A DNA stretch of 64,000 nt from NCBI GenBank assembly GCA_015661515.1, contig DQVX01000016.1, positions 7-64,006 of the forward strand, in the 5' to 3' direction. Source of the DNA: Nanobdellota archaeon (GTDB lineage: Archaea > Aenigmatarchaeota > Aenigmatarchaeia > Aenigmatarchaeales > SZUA-1535). The notes below the pieces were generated by a model. The model was not told where the DNA came from. It saw only the letters and a list, made by a program, of their open reading frames with translations, and did not search any database. Positions 4,606 to 55,139 of this stretch are shown here, one piece after another. The position numbers were made by a program, and so were the translations under genes. Position 1 is the stretch's first letter. Every line of letters starts with the position of its first letter.

Positions 4606-5841
4606 TCACCATTTTACTTTCTCTATTTTTATTACATCAAGCTCAACCACTTTTGCTGGAACTCCTAAAATCTCTGCTACACTTGGACGAGTTCTTCCAT
4701 TATCTCCTGAAACCAGCTCTTTTACATAAAGTCCTGCAGAACATTTTATTATAAGCTCTACTGTTTTTGAATTTATATATTTCCATTTTATAGCTTTTAC
4801 TTCTCTTTTTCTAAGCTTATCAGCCCTTCTATGAAGAACTCTTTCAGGAGTTTGCTGGTTTATAACTCCAATAAGTTTTCTTAGTTTTTTAAGCTCTTCT
4901 TTTTTTACAGGTTTTTCAAATTTTACAACCACTCTATATGTTTTATCCGGAGAAGCTTCTTTAACTTTTCTTACCATTTCTCTTTCTACAAGTTTAAGTC
5001 CTTTTACTTTAACTTTTTTAGAAGCATTTATTTGTTTTGCAATTTCTTTAAGGTTTATTTTTCTTTTTTTAGGTTCAATTATTTCTATAACAAATGCTCT
5101 CCAGGCAAGGCATCGAGCATCTATATCTTCTCGACCCATTCCGTGAAATTTTGTATCTTTACCTTTAGTTGCTTTAAGCAAAGGTTTTGCTATAATTTGC
5201 TCTACAGAAGTTTTATATTTCCCTGGTGTTCCCCATTTGCATTGCGGAATTCCTCGAACTAATTTTTGATAATAACCAAAAATAAAGAGAGAAGATATTT
5301 GAATTTCTATTTTTGGTTTGCCTTTTTCCCAGTCAAAAAGTATAACAACTTCTGGCTTTTTTAATTCAGCTGTTTTTTTCATTTTCTGAGAAATTAATTT
5401 TCCTAACTCTCTGTTAAGCTCAGCCTTTAAAGGTTCGCAATAATCCATTCCTGCCAATTTCCACATTTCTTCTTCCTTTTCCAACATTTCTTTTGAAGGT
5501 CGATTTCCTACTAAGAATGTATTAAACTCTATTTTTTCAAGTTTTTTGATAGCCTTTTCAGCTATTTTTTCAAGTTTTTCAAATATATTTCCGCAAAAAT
5601 AACAATTAAGTTTTTTCTTAGAAGAGGTTTTTTTAGTTAACCTAAAATTATATTCATTGAAATTTTCTTGAGCAAAATTCTCAAGCTCTTGTGCTTCAAT
5701 AAGAAATGCTGCAAAATCTCTTATAATTCTACCTCTTTCTTTATTACTCATTCCACTAAGCATTTGAGCAAAAACTCTTCCTAAACAATTATCGCAAATA
5801 GGTTTTTGGAGTAAATTTTTTATTCTTTCAATTAACTCCAT
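4606..5841 (-). CDS. pus10: tRNA pseudouridine synthase Pus10 (psi54/psi55)
   Basis: 411 aa. N-terminal 'ICDNCLGRVFA' zinc-binding start typical of archaeal Pus10; THUMP-like middle; basic C-terminal catalytic domain. Confidence 0.6.
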   Translation of the reverse strand: MELIERIKNLLQKPICDNCLGRVFAQMLSGMSNKERGRIIRDFAAFLIEAQELENFAQENFNEYNFRLTKKTSSKKKLNCYFCGNIFEKLEKIAEKAIKKLEKIEFNTFLVGNRPSKEMLEKEEEMWKLAGMDYCEPLKAELNRELGKLISQKMKKTAELKKPEVVILFDWEKGKPKIEIQISSLFIFGYYQKLVRGIPQCKWGTPGKYKTSVEQIIAKPLLKATKGKDTKFHGMGREDIDARCLAWRAFVIEIIEPKKRKINLKEIAKQINASKKVKVKGLKLVEREMVRKVKEASPDKTYRVVVKFEKPVKKEELKKLRKLIGVINQQTPERVLHRRADKLRKREVKAIKWKYINSKTVELIIKCSAGLYVKELVSGDNGRTRPSVAEILGVPAKVVELDVIKIEKVKW

Positions 5842-9781: not shown

Positions 9782-9892
9782 GCCCCGGTAGCTCAGCTGG
9801 TTAGAGCGGTCGCCTCGTAAGCGACAGGTCGAGGGTTCGAAAATAAGTATAATATTTTCTAGAATTTTCAGAAACTCCCTCCCGGGGCTCCA
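9782..9892 (+). tRNA. tRNA-Thr(CGT) with a non-canonical ~34-nt intron in the T-loop; CCA encoded
   Basis: Acceptor 'GCCCCGG/CCGGGGC'; D-arm 'GCTCAGCTGGTTAGAGC'; anticodon arm 'GTCGC CTCGTAA GCGAC' (anticodon CGT); T-stem 'GAGGG...CCCTC'. The T-loop 'TTCGAA' is interrupted by 9842..9875 before T60. Confidence 0.8.
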
Positions 9893-42074: not shown

Positions 42075-42171
42075 AGCGGGGTAGGGCAGCCAGGAGTGCC
42101 CGCCGGGCTCATAATATATTATTTAATGAGACACCCGGAGGTCGGTGGTTCAAATCCACCCCCCGCTACCA
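42075..42171 (+). tRNA. initiator tRNA-Met(CAT) with canonical 19-nt 37/38 intron; CCA encoded
   Basis: A1:U72 acceptor pair ('AGCGGGG/CCCCGCT'); three G-C pairs at the base of the anticodon stem ('CCGGG/CCCGG'); loop 'CTCATA|A' split by intron 42114..42132; T-arm 'GGTGG TTCAAAT CCACC'. Confidence 0.85.
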
Positions 42172-42740: not shown

Positions 42741-42917
42741 GCCGAGGTAGCTCAGCCTGGTTAGAGCGCCAGACTCATAAGCTTTGCTTATGAGTGATGA
42801 GTTTGCCGAGTAATGAGGCAACGATGAATAGCAGGCTGAGAACTGAGATATCTGGAGGTCGCGGGTTCAAAAACTACAGCCCTTAAACAAAGCTTGAAAC
42901 TCCCGCCCTCGGCACCA
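42741..42917 (+). tRNA. tRNA-Met(CAT) (elongator or Ile2-type) with two introns: 70-nt canonical 37/38 intron and 29-nt T-loop intron; CCA encoded
   Basis: Acceptor 'GCCGAGG/CCTCGGC' (G1:C72); D-arm 'GCTCAGCCTGGTTAGAGC'; anticodon arm 'CCAGA CTCATAA ... TCTGG' with intron 42781..42850; T-arm 'GCGGG TTCAAA[42872..42900]T CCCGC'. Confidence 0.8.
42794..42846 (+). ncRNA. box C/D sRNA embedded in the 37/38 intron of tRNA-Met
   Basis: C 'GUGAUGA' (42794-42800); 13-nt guide; D'-like 'UGAG' (42814-17); C'-like 'CGAUGAA' (42822-28); 14-nt guide; D 'CUGA' (42843-46). The spacing matches archaeal C-12-D'-x-C'-12-D architecture. Confidence 0.6.
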
Positions 42918-42943
42918 TTTTATTTTATTCCTTGCGCCGGTAG

Positions 42944-43068
42944 TCTAGTGGTAGGACCCCGGCTTCCCAAGCCGGTGACCCGGGTTCGAAAGAAAACAAA
43001 AATATAAAATAGAGATTGAAGTAATTTTTCCTTTATCTTTTTGGCCGAATCTCCCGGCCGGCGCACCA
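42944..43068 (+). tRNA. tRNA-Gly(CCC) with ~61-nt T-loop intron; CCA encoded
   Basis: Acceptor 'GCGCCGG/CCGGCGC'; anticodon arm 'CCGGC TTCCCAA GCCGG'; T-arm 'CCGGG TTCGAA[42991..43051]T CCCGG'. Confidence 0.75.
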
Positions 43069-48180: not shown

Positions 48181-48339
48181 GGGCCCGTAGCTCAGCCTGG
48201 TAGAGCACCGGGCTTTTAGCGTTGAGCTAAAAGCTCGCTAAGCCGTAAGGCGATGGCGAAAGCGGAAGATACCCGGGAGTCGCGGGTTCAAAATTAAAAG
48301 TGGAAAAATTATTAAATGAAACTCCCGTCGGGCCCACCA
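48181..48339 (+). tRNA. tRNA-Lys(TTT) with two introns: 52-nt 37/38 intron and 30-nt T-loop intron; CCA encoded
   Basis: Acceptor 'GGGCCCG/CGGGCCC'; D-arm 'GCTCAGCCTGGTAGAGC'; 'CCGGG CTTTTA[48219..48270]A CCCGG'; T-arm 'GCGGG TTCAAA[48293..48322]T CCCGT' with a G:U closing pair. Confidence 0.75.
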
Positions 48340-48349
48340 ATTATGTTAG
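48298..48349 (+). repeat. direct repeat copy A (overlaps tRNA-Lys T-loop intron, 3' T-stem and acceptor)
   Basis: 'AGTGGAAAAATTATTAAATGAAACTCCCGTCGGGCCCACCAATTATGTTA' recurs at 48486..48537, with divergence confined to the acceptor/CCA-equivalent 7 nt. Confidence 0.8.
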
Positions 48350-48369
48350 CAGAAAAGGAGGTGAAAAAA

Positions 48370-48507
48370 ATGTGCAGATATAAGTCGATATATAATGGAA
48401 AATGCGAAAATACCTATTCACCGTATTATGGTAAAAAATGTAACGACTTTTTAGAAGCTGTATGTATTTATAGATGTAAAATTGATAGTGGAAAAATTAT
48501 TAAATGA
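48370..48507 (+). CDS. Cys-rich mini-protein (45 aa) between the repeats
   Basis: Strong RBS 'AAGGAGGTGA' 7 nt before the ATG; 'MCRYKSIYNGKCENTYSPYYGKKCNDFLEAVCIYRCKIDSGKIIK'. Confidence 0.45.
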   Translation: MCRYKSIYNGKCENTYSPYYGKKCNDFLEAVCIYRCKIDSGKIIK

Positions 48508-48537
48508 AACTCCTGTCGGGTGTAGCGATTATGTTAT
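48486..48537 (+). repeat. direct repeat copy B (degenerate copy of the tRNA-Lys 3' end)
   Basis: 'AGTGGAAAAATTATTAAATGAAACTCCTGTCGGGTGTAGCGATTATGTTA'. It is followed by an in-frame single-TM mini-ORF (MKLLSGVAIMLLEIITVIALILTASLIWF...). Confidence 0.8.
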
Positions 48538-48646
48538 TGGAAATAATAACCGTAATAGCTTTAATACTTACTGCAAGTTTAATATGGTTTATCAGGGCAG
48601 ATAAAAAACTAAACAAAAAACTCAAAAAATTAATTGAAAAATTCGG

Positions 48647-49117
48647 GTGCTGTTCGTGAGTAAAAGAGAAAAAAAGTTCTATAATTACAATATAAGGAAT
48701 ATACTTACAAATCTTCTGCAGGCAGAAGAGCACGCAAAAGCAATGAACACAATAAACTTTATAGAAGGTGAAGGAAGCTGTTATTTAAAACACCTTCTTT
48801 TTGTTCGCGGTGAATTAAGTGAGTTAATTTCTCATTCTACTGCTCTTGAAAAATCTTCAAAAACATATGAAAGACTTTTAAAAAAGATTGAAAATTTTTT
48901 AGATAAAGTAGAAAGTGGTGCTAAGTTTACAAAAAGAGAACTTATATTGTTTGTAAGAGAGATAAGAAAAGAAATTGAAAAAGAACATAAACCTTATGCT
49001 ACTTTTAACTGTGCATGCTTACATGCAATACCTTATTTAAAAATTTTGCTTATATTTCTTGCAGGAACAGGTTTTGGTTTAACGCTTTATTTTATTTTTA
49101 AGTTTATAGGACTGTAA
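48647..49117 (+). CDS. hypothetical tail-anchored membrane protein (156 aa)
   Basis: Helical soluble part plus C-terminal TM 'ILLIFLAGTGFGLTLYFIFKFIGL'. Confidence 0.4.
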   Translation: MLFVSKREKKFYNYNIRNILTNLLQAEEHAKAMNTINFIEGEGSCYLKHLLFVRGELSELISHSTALEKSSKTYERLLKKIENFLDKVESGAKFTKRELILFVREIRKEIEKEHKPYATFNCACLHAIPYLKILLIFLAGTGFGLTLYFIFKFIGL

Positions 49118-49139
49118 AAAAGGTGAGGAATTTCTTAAA

Positions 49140-49965
49140 AAATACGGGTTTGGAAAATTCATAGCTCTTATGACTGCTACAGGCTTAATAATTTTCAGCT
49201 AAAAGGCGAAGCTGAAATATACTATAGAAAATTTGAAAGTAAATGTAACATGCAACTGGACAGAAAATCATACTGTATTAAATATTAGTGTAACTTTGTT
49301 AAGGAGTATATCAACATCACCTTTACCGCTGCTAATTCAAGTGAGCTAGAGAATGTAAGTGAAGTGCTAGTGGATATAAATTACACCAATATATCCGATG
49401 CCCCACCATTGGTGTTTATGTACAAGAAGCAAAATTGGTATGATGTAACTAATTATTCAAAAGTCAATGCAGCTGGCAAAATAATAACTCTCAATTTAAC
49501 AGCAATAGCTAATGGATTATGTATCAGCACCAGATTTAACAAGTGATGTAAATGTACCTTCTAAAGTAAAAGTAGGTAGAAAATGTTTGATTAAAGTAAC
49601 AGTTAAGAATGTTGATAATGAAGATGCTGACCAATTTACAGTAGCATTATATATAGACGGTAAATATATAGATAGCAAATCAATTAACCAATTAATAGCT
49701 GGTGAAAGCGGGCTTGTAACATTTGAATTGGTTCATATGATAAACTCACTGAGTTAGATGAAGCAAACAATATTAAAAATGCTAAAATAAAAGTTTTTAG
49801 GCCAAGTAAAAAAATATTACTACTGATATCAATCCTGAAATGTCAGTAAATCTCTCTAAGACATCGGCAAATAAGTCTATTAGTGAAGAGCCTCCAATTA
49901 TACCATCTGAGCCTAAATTTGAACAAGATTCTACTCAAGATTCCAGAAACAAAACCGTTGGATAA
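49140..49965 (+). pseudogene. frameshift-disrupted surface protein gene with CARDB-like domain
   Basis: The domain reads 'PDLTSDVNVPSKVKVGRKCLIKVTVKNVDNEDADQFTVALYIDGKYIDSKSINQLIAGESGLVTFEL ... LTELDEANN' and is spread over at least three reading frames (ORFs 49364..49546, 49512..49757 and an unlisted frame), with extra stops upstream. Confidence 0.6.
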
Positions 49966-49981
49966 AACAGTTTAGCAGGAA

Positions 49982-50536
49982 TTATAATAGTAATTGATAT
50001 TTTGAAAGCACTTCACTAACAAATTTTACCCTTTCTTCTAAATCTTTTTCTTTTATTTCAATGTAGTTTATATTTCTTTCTCTAAAAAACTTTTCAAACA
50101 TTTTATCTATTTCCCTTTGAGCTTTTCTATCAAAAACATCAATCTGCCTAAAGCTATTAACTTCTATTACAGGTCTAACAAAAAATATTAAGGAATATCT
50201 TTCTTTACCAACAGTCTCTACTATCGCTTCTATTATGCTATATTCCTCTTCTGTTATCAACCCTTTCTCTTTAAGCCATGCACTATAAACAAGCATATCC
50301 CAAACACATCTATCCGCGATTATAATTTTTGTATTGTTATTTTTCAACACTCTGTTCTCTTCTCTTATTTGCTCAAAAACCATTAAAAGCTCTTTATGGA
50401 AATACCCCATTTCTGGATAAAGCTTATGTATTTTTTCAGCAACTTCGTTCACTACAGGCAATCTAAACCTTTTCTTTAGCTCATTCACTAATGTTGTTTT
50501 TCCTACTTGATGCGACCCAGAAAATGCTACTATCAT
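49982..50536 (-). CDS. P-loop NTPase (AAA_28 / NadR-kinase-like ATPase)
   Basis: 'VAFSGSHQVGKTTLVNEL' Walker A; 'IIIADRC' Walker B-like; 184 aa. Confidence 0.55.
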   Translation of the reverse strand: MIVAFSGSHQVGKTTLVNELKKRFRLPVVNEVAEKIHKLYPEMGYFHKELLMVFEQIREENRVLKNNNTKIIIADRCVWDMLVYSAWLKEKGLITEEEYSIIEAIVETVGKERYSLIFFVRPVIEVNSFRQIDVFDRKAQREIDKMFEKFFRERNINYIEIKEKDLEERVKFVSEVLSKYQLLL

Positions 50537-50560
50537 ATGTCATACCTCAGTATTTTTTTA

Positions 50561-50908
50561 TTAAATATACATTTTCTTATTTTCTTTTATTTTTTCTTCA
50601 ATTTGTTTTTTGAGAGTTTTTCCTGTTCTAATCATTCCCGGTGCTCCTGTTCCATCTAAAAGAAAAATTACTTCATCTTTAACAAGCTCAGCTTCTTTAA
50701 GCAAAAATTTATCATAAGCAATAAGCTCTAAAATTTCTTTCATTTTCTCTTGAGCATATTTTTTTGTAGCTTCGTTTGAATTTTCTGAGAGTTCTTTGTA
50801 AAAGTTATATAACTTTTTATGCGTTTCTATTCTTTCTTTAATTATTTTCTTGAATTCCTCGTATTCTATTATTTTATAATATTCGTAATGTTCCATCATC
50901 ATTATCAA
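50561..50908 (-). CDS. hypothetical protein (115 aa)
   Basis: ORF only; helical. Confidence 0.35.
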   Translation of the reverse strand: MIMMMEHYEYYKIIEYEEFKKIIKERIETHKKLYNFYKELSENSNEATKKYAQEKMKEILELIAYDKFLLKEAELVKDEVIFLLDGTGAPGMIRTGKTLKKQIEEKIKENKKMYI

Positions 50909-51068
50909 AATTTAAATTTTATTATACTAATTTTTTATTAGAGCTTAAAAAATTTTATAGGTTGTAACACATGAGTTTGCAAAAGGCTAAGAAAATACTA
51001 CTAATGTTCTTTTCTAAGTTCTTGACAGGTAAATTTAGCTATAAAAAAATATTTGGGGGTGGTGACCC

Positions 51069-51566
51069 ATGAAAAGAAAAATGACTGTAAGCGAAATAAT
51101 AACAGTGTTATATTATTTATCCTATTATTTAAATTCTTTAACGGGTAAATTCTCTTCTAACGCATTTTCACAAAATCTAGAAACTGGTAACAAGATACAT
51201 AAAAAATTAGGATATTCTCAAGATAAATATATTTTTCAAAGATTTGTTGAAGTTGATGGAGAATATTGGCAAATTATAGGAAAACCAGATGAAGTTAATG
51301 AAGAAGAAGGATACATCGGTGAACTTAAAACTTATAGAAATAAAAAGAAAAAGGAAAAGATTAAGGAAATTGCAGAAACACAAGCTAATATTTACTGCTT
51401 TTTAAGCGGTTTTCCAAAATTTAAAGTATATCTTTATGATGCTTTAGAAGATAAAAAAACTTATGAAAAAGAATATGAAGCGAATTATAAAAAAGCTGAA
51501 GAAGATATTAAAAAAGCGGTTAGAAGAAAGAAAAAAGCACATAAACTGCTAAAAAAATTAAAATAA
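51069..51566 (+). CDS. small PD-(D/E)xK nuclease-fold protein (Hjc/restriction-endonuclease-like) with Lys-rich tail
   Basis: '...ETGNKIHKKLGY...IIGKPDEVNEEEGYIGELKTY' gives an E ... D-x13-E-x-K arrangement compatible with the Hjc-type active site. Confidence 0.35.
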   Translation: MKRKMTVSEIITVLYYLSYYLNSLTGKFSSNAFSQNLETGNKIHKKLGYSQDKYIFQRFVEVDGEYWQIIGKPDEVNEEEGYIGELKTYRNKKKKEKIKEIAETQANIYCFLSGFPKFKVYLYDALEDKKTYEKEYEANYKKAEEDIKKAVRRKKKAHKLLKKLK

Positions 51567-51567
51567 A

Positions 51568-52101
51568 TTAATAAATTACTGTACAACCTTTTGTTTTACA
51601 GGTATTAATAAGATAATCTATTGCATATTTATTGCCTAATATAACACCAGTAGGCAATTCACAAAATTTATAATCTCCATTTATCATTATTTTTTCTCCA
51701 TTCATATTTTCACAAATCTTTTGTTCTTTTTCCTTTCCAAGAAAATATCCATTTTTTTCCTGACCTTTAGCAGGATAACCTTGAATTACAATAAGAGTTT
51801 TATTCTCTATAATTCCAAAAAGAAGTGGAACACCACCATCCCAAGAAAAATTAAAGTTTTTATAAAGATAACTTAGATATTTTTTAGGCTGTGTAGTTTT
51901 TACAATTTTAATTTCGTTTTCATAATTTTTAAGATATTCTATCATAGCGTGACAATGAGGACATGCTGGAGAATATATTAAATATACCACATTTTCTTTA
52001 TTTTCATGAATTTGGTTTGTATTTTGGTTTTTTTCTTCTTGCATTATGCATGCAGAAAACAGAACAAGTGCAAAAATAAAAAGAAAATAAACTTTTCTCA
52101 T
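51568..52101 (-). CDS. secreted thioredoxin-fold thiol:disulfide oxidoreductase
   Basis: Signal peptide 'MRKVYFLFIFALVLFSAC'; 'SPACPHCHAM' CxxC active site. Confidence 0.7.
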   Translation of the reverse strand: MRKVYFLFIFALVLFSACIMQEEKNQNTNQIHENKENVVYLIYSPACPHCHAMIEYLKNYENEIKIVKTTQPKKYLSYLYKNFNFSWDGGVPLLFGIIENKTLIVIQGYPAKGQEKNGYFLGKEKEQKICENMNGEKIMINGDYKFCELPTGVILGNKYAIDYLINTCKTKGCTVIY

Positions 52102-52104
52102 GCA

Positions 52105-52758
52105 TCACACCGTTAAGAAAACTCCTAACAATAATAATCCTGCAATAAGATGAAGCTTTTTTATGTGTCTTTCTTTCCAATCTAAAATTTTCTTTGGAGA
52201 AGTACCAAAAGCTACTATTAATGTTATTGCAATCATTGGTAAAATGAAAATAAAGTTATAATAAAGAAGAATTGCGAGTTTTTCTAAAGAGCTTTGAGCT
52301 AGAAGCATTAATGCACTTAAATAAGGTCCTGAAGAGCATGGGAGTAAAAGTATAGAGCAAAGTGCAGCAACAGGAATTGCTGTATACGGATTTTCTACTG
52401 AAGCTAAAAGTTTTTTTGCGTAAGGCCTAAACTTTAAGGGCATTTCTAAGGAGCGAAAACCAGGTTTGTAAGATAAAACAGCATAAAATTCCATTATTAT
52501 CATAATTCCTAAAAGTACTTTCAAAACAATTCTGAGAATATTTTCTATTCCTAAAGTATACAATACTTGAAGTATACCTAAACCATAAAGAAGATACATA
52601 AAGTAAATTGTTCCAAAGAAAAATACTCCTCCTAAGAGTGCATTTTTTCTACCTTTAGTTATTAAAAGAGCTGAAAGTAAAAGAGCTTGAACAGTTAATG
52701 TACATGGATTTACAGCATCAACTAAAGCCAAACTTGTTATATGAATTATATCTGCCAT
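52105..52758 (-). CDS. ccdA: CcdA/DsbD-family transmembrane disulfide electron transporter
   Basis: Six TM helices; conserved Cys in 'DAVNPCTL' and 'LLLPCSSGPYL'. Confidence 0.7.
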   Translation of the reverse strand: MADIIHITSLALVDAVNPCTLTVQALLLSALLITKGRKNALLGGVFFFGTIYFMYLLYGLGILQVLYTLGIENILRIVLKVLLGIMIIMEFYAVLSYKPGFRSLEMPLKFRPYAKKLLASVENPYTAIPVAALCSILLLPCSSGPYLSALMLLAQSSLEKLAILLYYNFIFILPMIAITLIVAFGTSPKKILDWKERHIKKLHLIAGLLLLGVFLTV

Positions 52759-54844: not shown

Positions 54845-54967
54845 GCGCCGGTAGTCTAGGGGTAGGACACTGCCCTGCCACGGCAGAGGCCCGGGTTCGA
54901 AATATAACTAATATTAATATCACAGCTCTTTACTATACCTTGTTCGAATTTCCCGGCCGGCGCACCA
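54845..54967 (+). tRNA. tRNA-Gly(GCC) with ~49-nt T-loop intron; CCA encoded
   Basis: Acceptor 'GCGCCGG/CCGGCGC'; D-arm 'GTCTAGGGGTAGGAC'; 'CTGCC CTGCCAC GGCAG'; T-arm 'CCGGG TTCGAA[54902..54950]T CCCGG'. Confidence 0.75.
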
Positions 54968-54971
54968 TTTT

Positions 54972-55139
54972 ATGAAAAGAAAAACAAGAAAAATTCTTGA
55001 AAAAAAGTGGAAAAGAATTGCTAAAGAAAGAATAGCAATTCTTGAAAAAATGAAAAAAATAAAACCAGAATTTGCTCAGCGTTATGATGAACTTATTTAT
55101 CTTATAAAGAAAAAATGTAGACTTCTCCCTAAAAGATAA
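54972..55139 (+). CDS. small basic protein (55 aa), not in ORF track
   Basis: 'MKRKTRKILEKKWKRIAKERIAILEKMKKIKPEFAQRYDELIYLIKKKCRLLPKR' lies immediately 3' of tRNA-Gly. Confidence 0.35.
   Translation: MKRKTRKILEKKWKRIAKERIAILEKMKKIKPEFAQRYDELIYLIKKKCRLLPKR

Follow-up and report, generated by a model that had tools for sequence, protein, structure and literature searches.

A duplicated 3′ end of an intron-bearing tRNA-Lys gene flanks a small, apparently lineage-specific insertion in a DPANN archaeon

The tRNA-Lys(UUU) gene of an Aenigmatarchaeota archaeon, an AT-rich (~29% GC) member of the DPANN, is interrupted by two introns, and its 3′ end is found a second time 188 bp downstream. The gene lies on contig DQVX01000016.1, of which a 64-kb stretch was analysed; this whole stretch is called the window, and all positions refer to it unless another locus is named. 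Comparison with related genomes indicates that the species carries a fixed, lineage-specific 188-bp insertion at the junction between the tRNA gene and the operon that follows it, which encodes a small membrane protein (the transmembrane, or TM, open reading frame, ORF) and a conserved 153-aa protein. The arrangement has about an even chance of having arisen by integration-type recombination, either of a small DNA or of an element that has since been lost almost completely. Nothing autonomous remains at the locus, no mobile element is left, and the locus is a modest variant of a well-known footprint, not a new system.

The two copies of the direct repeat (Table 1) span 66 nt at 83% identity with a spacing of 188 nt, and they share a perfect run of 27 nt, AGTGGAAAAATTATTAAATGAAACTCC (48299-48325 = 48487-48513). 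Each comprises the T-loop intron, the 3′ exon and the CCA of tRNA-Lys, plus 9-16 nt beyond, which are the first codons of the next gene (59-66 nt in total). A preliminary description of this DNA, made from the sequence alone, had noted the duplication of the tRNA 3′ end 188 bp downstream, and the alignment bears this out. It had given the repeat as 50 nt long and its divergence as restricted to the 7 nt of the acceptor/CCA stretch. The recurrence stands, the length does not, as the repeat runs 9-16 nt past the CCA, and only 5 of the 11 mismatches between the copies fall in the 7-nt stretch, the others being at repeat positions 7, 9, 37 and 60-62. Mismatches cluster around the identical 27-nt run (P = 0.019 under random mismatch placement). 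The intron part, which is fast-evolving, is the best-conserved section of the repeat, and the copies differ at 11 of 66 positions, against a difference of ~6% between orthologous DNA of this species and of L013, its closest relative in the comparison.

The repeat does not belong to a generic repeat family, as the window contains exactly two occurrences of its 26-nt core where 0 would be expected. No third copy of the repeat was found in the 64-kb window, and with just two copies present, a larger element bounded by a third one was rejected. A search for the core by exact pattern in GTDB genomes, JGI metagenome contigs and viral contigs gave 0 matches. Contigs from five independent samples agree over 550 nt of the locus, with 0 mismatches, and the repeat is therefore not an assembly artefact. 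Strain polymorphism was sought in the same material, and all five same-species contigs are identical and filled; the contig of a further strain at 99% identity (L011) stops within the repeat.

In-silico removal of both introns (48219-48270 and 48293-48322) yields a 77-nt product that ARAGORN accepts as tRNA-Lys(ttt), with the anticodon UUU in its cloverleaf and a canonical T arm (GCGGG-TTCAAAT-CCCGT). The two-intron gene of the preliminary description is thereby upheld. The unspliced gene was missed by ARAGORN and by Rfam at the gathering threshold, and a permissive Rfam scan matched its 5′ part at 25.3 bits. In the minimum free energy fold of intron 2 with the T arm (-8.3 kcal/mol), the 5-bp T stem is followed by a 4-bp UUCA/UGAA helix and an h′ helix, forming the bulge-helix-bulge (BHB) motif of the hBHBh′ type; its bulges are the 3-nt AAA and ACU, and the splice sites fall after the second nucleotide of each. 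In the corresponding fold of intron 1, the anticodon loop is paired with the intron (GCUUUUAGC/GCUAAAAGC) and strict BHB geometry is not displayed; a BHB can be drawn by hand only (CUUU/GAAG helix, bulges UAG and AUA).

The two copies have had different fates. Copy 1 would provide the 3′ splice site, the T stem, the acceptor strand and the CCA of the only functional tRNA-Lys. Copy 2 differs by a T-stem C>T change and by an acceptor/CCA stretch that reads TGTAGCG where copy 1 has CCCACCA. Opposite the 5′ acceptor strand, it would form a G:U pair, a G x G mismatch (G2 x G71), another G:U pair and then 4 Watson-Crick pairs, and its tail is GCG in place of CCA (AGCG vs ACCA). On this predicted pairing, copy 2 is a dead tRNA 3′ half because of the G x G mismatch, the two G:U pairs and the missing CCA. 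It can still form a BHB with the T arm (-6.1 kcal/mol), which speaks for reading it as a functional alternative or split tRNA 3′ half. That reading has to contend with the defective acceptor and with the fold of the whole-region transcript, in which the 5′ acceptor strand pairs with copy 1; no 5′ partner for copy 2 was found upstream of it. Taken together with the assembly-artefact and repeat-family readings, against which stand the five assemblies and the lack of further copies in the window and in the genome, metagenome and viral scans, it is highly improbable.

Related genomes give the event its polarity. Orthologues of tRNA-Lys are present in L004, L009, L013, L014 and L034, and in L004, L013, L014 and L034 the gene lies upstream of the TM/153-aa pair. 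The spacer between tRNA and operon is longest in L004, at 510 nt, and there includes a helix-turn-helix gene on the opposite strand; it measures 190 nt in L034 and 50 nt in L014, and only 3 nt remain in L013. The last of these is the closest relative, with a 156-aa protein that is 86% identical to the 153-aa protein and ~94% DNA identity in intron 1 and the TM ORF. Its site is uninterrupted (...TCCCGTCGGGCCCACCA-ATT-ATG-ATG-TTG-GAA...): the ATG follows the CCA at a distance of 3 nt, and both the Cys-rich ORF and a second copy are missing. Neither the junction duplication nor the insert is found in L013, L014, L004 or L034, and with L013 as the empty site the insertion is polarised. The reconstructed empty allele of the window species would have ...CCCACCAATTATGTTA joined directly to TTGGAAATAATAACC. 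Since both copies in the window consist of the tRNA 3′ end followed by ATTATGTTA, the abutting arrangement of tRNA and operon must, by this reconstruction, predate the event.

The T-loop intron has a history of its own. Intron 2 of the window is not alignable with that of L013 (19/39), nor with the GC-hairpin introns of L004, L009, L014 and L034. Among these close relatives, it is an AT-rich 30-mer here, a different 37-mer in L013 (813-849 of that locus) and a GC-rich hairpin elsewhere. Intron 1 and the flanks share ~94% identity with L013, and the alignments indicate that this intron is swapped wholesale and not by gradual mutation.

Table 1. Coordinates and basis of the features at the tRNA-Lys locus (window positions; SD, Shine-Dalgarno sequence; BRE, TFB recognition element; PWM, position weight matrix)
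Feature	Position	Strand	Basis
tRNA-Lys(UUU) gene, CCA encoded; exons 48181-48218, 48271-48292, 48323-48339	48181..48339	+	in-silico splicing and ARAGORN, partial Rfam match
Intron 1: GC-rich, 52 nt, at the canonical position 37/38; ~94% identity with L013	48219..48270	+	splicing, fold
Intron 2, 30 nt, T-loop position 59/60, AT-rich, hBHBh′ motif with T arm	48293..48322	+	fold
Repeat copy 1: intron 2, 3′ exon, CCA and ATTATGTTA...; putatively functional tRNA 3′ part, then duplicated first TM codons	48290..48355	+	repeat alignment
Cys-rich mini-ORF: 54 aa from ATG 48343, or 45 aa from SD-led ATG 48370 (48370-48507)	48343..48507	+	
Unique insert, 122 nt (129 nt from 48349 if the repeat ends at ATTATGTTA); 30% GC; SD and codons 1-36 of the Cys-rich ORF	48356..48477	+	
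SD GGAGGTG, 6 nt upstream of ATG 48370	48357..48363	+	
Repeat copy 2: predicted dead tRNA 3′ half fused to true TM ORF start	48478..48543	+	acceptor pairing, fold
BRE/TATA-like element AAAATTATTAAATG in copy 2	48493..48506	+	PWM; ends 24 nt upstream of ATG 48531
Small membrane protein (TM) ORF, 42 aa from ATG 48531, ends ...KFGCCS	48531..48659	+	orthologues, 94% nt identity to L013
153-aa conserved protein; GTG start overlaps TM stop (GTGA, 48656-48659)	48656..49117	+	homologues

The DNA between the copies has a host-like GC content, and no copy of it was found elsewhere in the window, in the other loci or in the same-species contigs. Most of the 45-aa Cys-rich ORF that the preliminary description had singled out as strongly driven by its ribosome-binding site lies in it, and the presence of both ORF and SD is confirmed. 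The SD heptamer occurs only 4 times in the window (both strands), 2 of these being correctly placed before an ATG. The upstream ATG 48343 stands 3 nt after the CCA, in frame with the Cys-rich ORF, and the last nine codons and the stop TGA (48505-48507) fall in copy 2. Both copies contain ATGAAACTCC, which had been described as opening short ORFs. The sequence is there, but these starts are by-products of the BHB 3′ element (UGAA): the 'MKLPSGPP' start at 48316 and the 'MKLLSGVAI' extension from ATG 48504 both derive from the UGAA that the BHB requires. The 63-aa call from ATG 48316 (NCBI HIQ49736.1, locus tag EYH56_00925), beginning within the tRNA intron, is unlikely. The insert is open through one frame (P = 0.010), and the ORF has five Cys per 45 residues (P = 0.002 from shuffles; P = 2.5e-4 against the genome Cys usage of 1.25%). 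With its open frame and Cys enrichment, the insert looks like real coding DNA.

Searches with the Cys-rich peptide against 1.84e9 cluster representatives returned its own cluster only, and two weak matches, to unrelated repeat proteins, were rejected as homologues. Pfam and PHROG searches gave no match, and an AlphaFold2 single-sequence model reached a predicted local distance difference test score (pLDDT) of 64.5, which is too low for a structure search. A cluster at 90% identity joins the 54-aa form with 37 other members that are ABC-type ATPases of ~452 aa; BLASTP detects no similarity between them, and the grouping was dismissed as a clustering artefact. Another Cys-containing ORF, of 63 aa, is found in L013 (459-650 of that locus) as a lineage-specific insertion at the opposite flank of the tRNA-Lys gene, between that gene and PAP2. 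It was considered as a relative of the Cys-rich ORF and rejected (E = 1.9, no convincing flanking repeat). The event at the window locus gave a new SD-led, Cys-rich orphan mini-gene within an existing operon, and is thus a small case of gene gain.

Integration-type recombination would have started from the arrangement still seen in L013, in which 3 nt separate the tRNA CCA from the ATG of the operon. A donor, either a small DNA or a larger element of which nearly all has since been deleted, would have carried an att-like, imperfect copy of the junction. A crossover between donor and chromosome, with the topology of attB x attP integration at archaeal tRNA genes, would then have delivered 122-129 bp of orphan DNA, with its perfect SD and Cys-rich mini-ORF, and left 59-66 bp of junction on either side. 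Such a donor with an imperfect att copy fits because the copies share an identical core with diverged arms, differ from each other more than orthologous DNA does and are best conserved in the intron. A direct repeat spanning the tRNA 3′ end is the classic footprint of integration in the model of Sugahara et al. (2012; PMC3293823), and in the Caldiarchaeum case the integration of an element left a tRNA fragment, changed the intron and passed on attP/attB mismatches (PMC3293823).

The locus resembles attL/attR sites at archaeal tRNA genes, such as those of SSV-type and pNOB8-type integrases and of the Caldiarchaeum tRNA-Thr (Sugahara et al., 2012; PMC3293823), in several respects. A partial tRNA copy lies beside a reconstituted tRNA, an insert separates the copies, the copies are imperfect and a relative has the uninterrupted site; moreover, an intron lies within the recombining region, and its sequence differs between close lineages. 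The locus departs from this class in that the insert measures 122-129 bp and not kilobases, with an orphan ORF of 45-54 aa as its only cargo, in that no integrase (whole or split), other element gene or known free element is found here, and in that the repeat does not stop with the tRNA but includes the initial codons of the host gene that follows. The preliminary description had read the repeat as an integration footprint. What holds is that the segment is an insertion, given the uninterrupted site in L013 and the four relatives without the duplication; neither integrase nor donor has come to light.

Several observations weigh against integration. Neither the interval between the repeats nor the surrounding ±10 kb holds an integrase or recombinase (more distant parts of the window were not searched), in agreement with the earlier remark that none is visible. 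Searches for an attP donor among viral contigs, phages, plasmids, GTDB genomes and JGI metagenome contigs gave no match; they used exact matches or BLAST and could miss a diverged donor. The insert is far too small for an element, and its peptide has no homologue, so the insert is not assignable to any mobile-element family. Host-specific sequence, namely the first operon codons, forms part of the repeat, and an endogenous duplication would fit this as well. A crossover in the 27-nt core, if that is where it took place, must have been followed by 6 changes in 18 nt of the displaced host 3′ exon, and the mismatches are reducible to ~4 clustered events, which makes the argument from excess divergence a soft one. 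The direction of the event, finally, rests on one close relative, L013. This lineage could in principle have lost the insert through recombination between the repeats; its different intron 2 argues against such a loss.

An endogenous duplication-insertion with no mobile element, arising from an error of replication or repair (template switching, or break repair with captured filler), is a serious rival, if on the unlikely side. By this route 59-66 bp of the junction would have been re-copied and ~125 bp inserted from elsewhere in the genome, with later changes in copy 2 that were few, clustered and possibly selected. It is favoured by the host-specific sequence with which the repeat continues past the tRNA (ATTATGTTA, where the TM ORF begins), by the GC content of the insert (30%), which matches that of the host, and by the negative searches for integrase and donor. 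Furthermore, if the repeat is defined by its 50-nt core, the mismatches amount to one point change and one 7-nt cluster. However, no source copy exists in the 64-kb window or in any same-species contig, and no paralogous protein was found among 15 billion predicted proteins, including those from metagenomes of the same species. Duplicates formed de novo should also begin identical, yet these copies diverge more than orthologues do. A simple tandem duplication was rejected, and with it the old tandem duplication entertained in the preliminary description: the interior is similar neither to the TM ORF (z = -0.95 global, 0.17 local) nor, in the other register, to the 5′ part of the tRNA (z = -1.05 and 0.71).

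The locus offers a clean, polarised example of DNA entry at an intron-bearing DPANN tRNA gene, with a filled site that is fixed in one species and an empty one in a relative with ~94% identity. The T-loop intron gave the tRNA 3′ end no protection from recombination, a point of relevance to the proposal that introns guard tRNA genes against integration. In models of intron gain and transposition, an intron enters another tRNA; here the intron and the 3′ exon were copied outside a tRNA, and the event is therefore not an intron transposition.

The junction may also matter for expression. All other tRNAs in the window have TTT or TTTT directly after the CCA, whereas tRNA-Lys is followed by ATTATG, in the window and in L013. 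Because no T-run terminator follows its CCA, read-through is plausible, and transcription probably runs from tRNA-Lys into the downstream ORFs. The Cys-rich ORF stop overlaps an alternative TM ORF start at ATG 48504, which would give a 51-aa form (ATGA, 48504-48507). Together with the GTGA overlap further downstream, this suggests a translationally coupled unit of three genes, in the order Cys-rich ORF, TM ORF and 153-aa ORF. Copy 2 would now form the 5′ region of the displaced operon, retaining a TATA-like box and the ATTATG start context. Its CCC>TGT change yields GGTG ~8 nt before ATG 48531, a possible SD for the now-internal TM cistron. The likeness to dicistronic tRNA-mRNA units and leaderless archaeal mRNAs lies in the ORF 3 nt after the CCA and the lack of a terminator T-run (window and L013); the difference is that co-transcription or an intron promoter is here inferred from sequence only.

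The BRE/TATA-like element AAAATTATTAAATG is found in copy 1 as well (48305-48318), where it ends 24 nt upstream of ATG 48343. Scored with a PWM trained on the promoters of relatives only, it reaches 5.96, the 99.70th percentile of the window. In the relatives, the TATA box ends 22-24 nt upstream of the TM ATG, a leaderless geometry, and TATA-like boxes in the window peak 19-24 nt before ATGs. The T-loop intron of tRNA-Lys might thus also act as BRE/TATA promoter for the operon starting 3 nt downstream of the tRNA, so that in this extremely compact genome a spliced-out intron would control the adjacent gene, and the repeat might be a duplicated promoter-in-intron module; this is rather unlikely. 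If true, it would explain how an intron part that evolves fast has stayed perfectly conserved inside a dead tRNA 3′ half and why the wholesale replacement of intron 2 depends on the abutment of operon and tRNA. Non-canonical tRNA introns in compact archaeal genomes would then also have a functional explanation.

A promoter module of this kind may have been duplicated under selection. The 66-bp repeat would then be a unit of promoter, start site and start codon whose duplication let a new gene enter, copy 1 serving as the promoter of the new gene and copy 2 as that of the old operon. This account, which is somewhat unlikely, concerns present function and is compatible with either origin. Besides the spacing and score of the intron element, it is favoured by the non-homologous intron 2 of L013, which holds a stronger site (99.99th percentile), and by the relatives with a promoter in the spacer, whose GC-hairpin introns have no such site. 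The TATA core and ATTATGTTA are exactly what the copies conserve, with the spacer as the decayed part, and the introns of tRNAs that abut an ORF rank 1, 3 and 4 among 11 T-loop-intron tRNAs, although this rank test (one-sided P ~0.02) has n = 3, two of the three being orthologous loci. The L013 site, however, is placed 45 nt from the ATG, a distance that does not suit a leaderless start. Moreover, no good site is present in tRNA-Gly(GCC), which does abut an ORF, and tRNA-Gly(CCC) reaches the 99.86th percentile with no same-strand gene downstream, which means that high scores arise by chance in AT-rich introns. Read-through from the tRNA promoter would account for expression without an internal promoter. 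The abutment of tRNA-Gly(GCC) is the second of its type in the window (54845-55139): a 55-aa basic ORF starts at ATG 54972, 4 nt after the CCA, and is followed by prefoldin beta.

The genes beyond the repeat belong to the host. Orthologues of the TM ORF (40-44 aa) begin at the equivalent ATG in 14 relatives, and ATG 48531, which matches the start in every relative, is the ancestral one. The 153/156-aa protein has invariant His/Cys motifs and a C-terminal TM helix, and its 16 homologues, at 49-99% identity, are from Aenigmatarchaeota. At all 14 related loci, the homologue of the 153-aa protein is preceded by a membrane protein of 40-44 aa ending in ...(F/L)xCC(S/G). As judged from this conservation across related loci, the pair is a conserved Aenigmatarchaeota host operon and not element cargo. 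The degraded integrated element that the preliminary description had proposed downstream of the repeat is therefore not sustained, the remainder of that region being a separate insertion.

This separate insertion is a 2.45-kb block (49117-51566) set between two convergent conserved genes. The block has no counterpart in L013, L014, L004 and L034, whose loci contain no homologues of it either. CARDB-domain fragments and a dNK/AAA_28 kinase-like gene lie in it, together with two ORFs, one of 115 aa and one of 165 aa, the latter with weak similarity to PD-(D/E)XK nucleases. The block is a lineage-specific insertion beyond the operon, not bracketed by the repeat, and Pfam and PHROG searches of it revealed no phage or integrase signature. 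The TM/153-aa pair (48531-49117) adjoins a thioredoxin-like protein (CPHC) and a DsbD/SfLAP-like membrane protein (51568-52758), and this uncharacterised, thiol/metal-related neighbourhood is specific to Aenigmatarchaeota. A palindrome, TGAAAC-N15-GTTTCA, straddles the TATA box of the operon in the more distant relatives L004 (~5320-5350 of that locus, minus strand), L017, L018, L019, L021 and L027, sometimes in two tandem copies, and is probably a transcription-factor site. It is not present in the window or L013.

Introns at position 59/60 are found in at least five tRNAs of the window, and intron 2 of tRNA-Lys is thus in itself normal for this genome. The combination of a 37/38 intron with a 59/60 hBHBh′ intron in tRNA-Lys is reminiscent of the multi-intron archaeal tRNAs with non-canonical BHB introns known from Thermoproteales, DPANN and others. 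The five tRNAs, all with an encoded CCA, lie at 9782-9892, 42741-42917, 42934-43068, 48181-48339 and 54845-54967. ARAGORN finds 0 of them, and Rfam at the gathering threshold finds only a single-intron tRNA at 42075-42168; standard annotation would under-call tRNAs in this genome. One of the five, tRNA-Met(CAU) at 42741-42917, has two introns, of which the canonical one (~42781-42845) holds a C/D-box sRNA-like sequence (GUGAUGA ... CUGA) that Rfam matches as sR11 at 42790-42840, with 27 bits, below the gathering score of 39. Archaeal pre-tRNA introns are known to house guide RNAs, and the sequence in the tRNA-Met intron recalls these.

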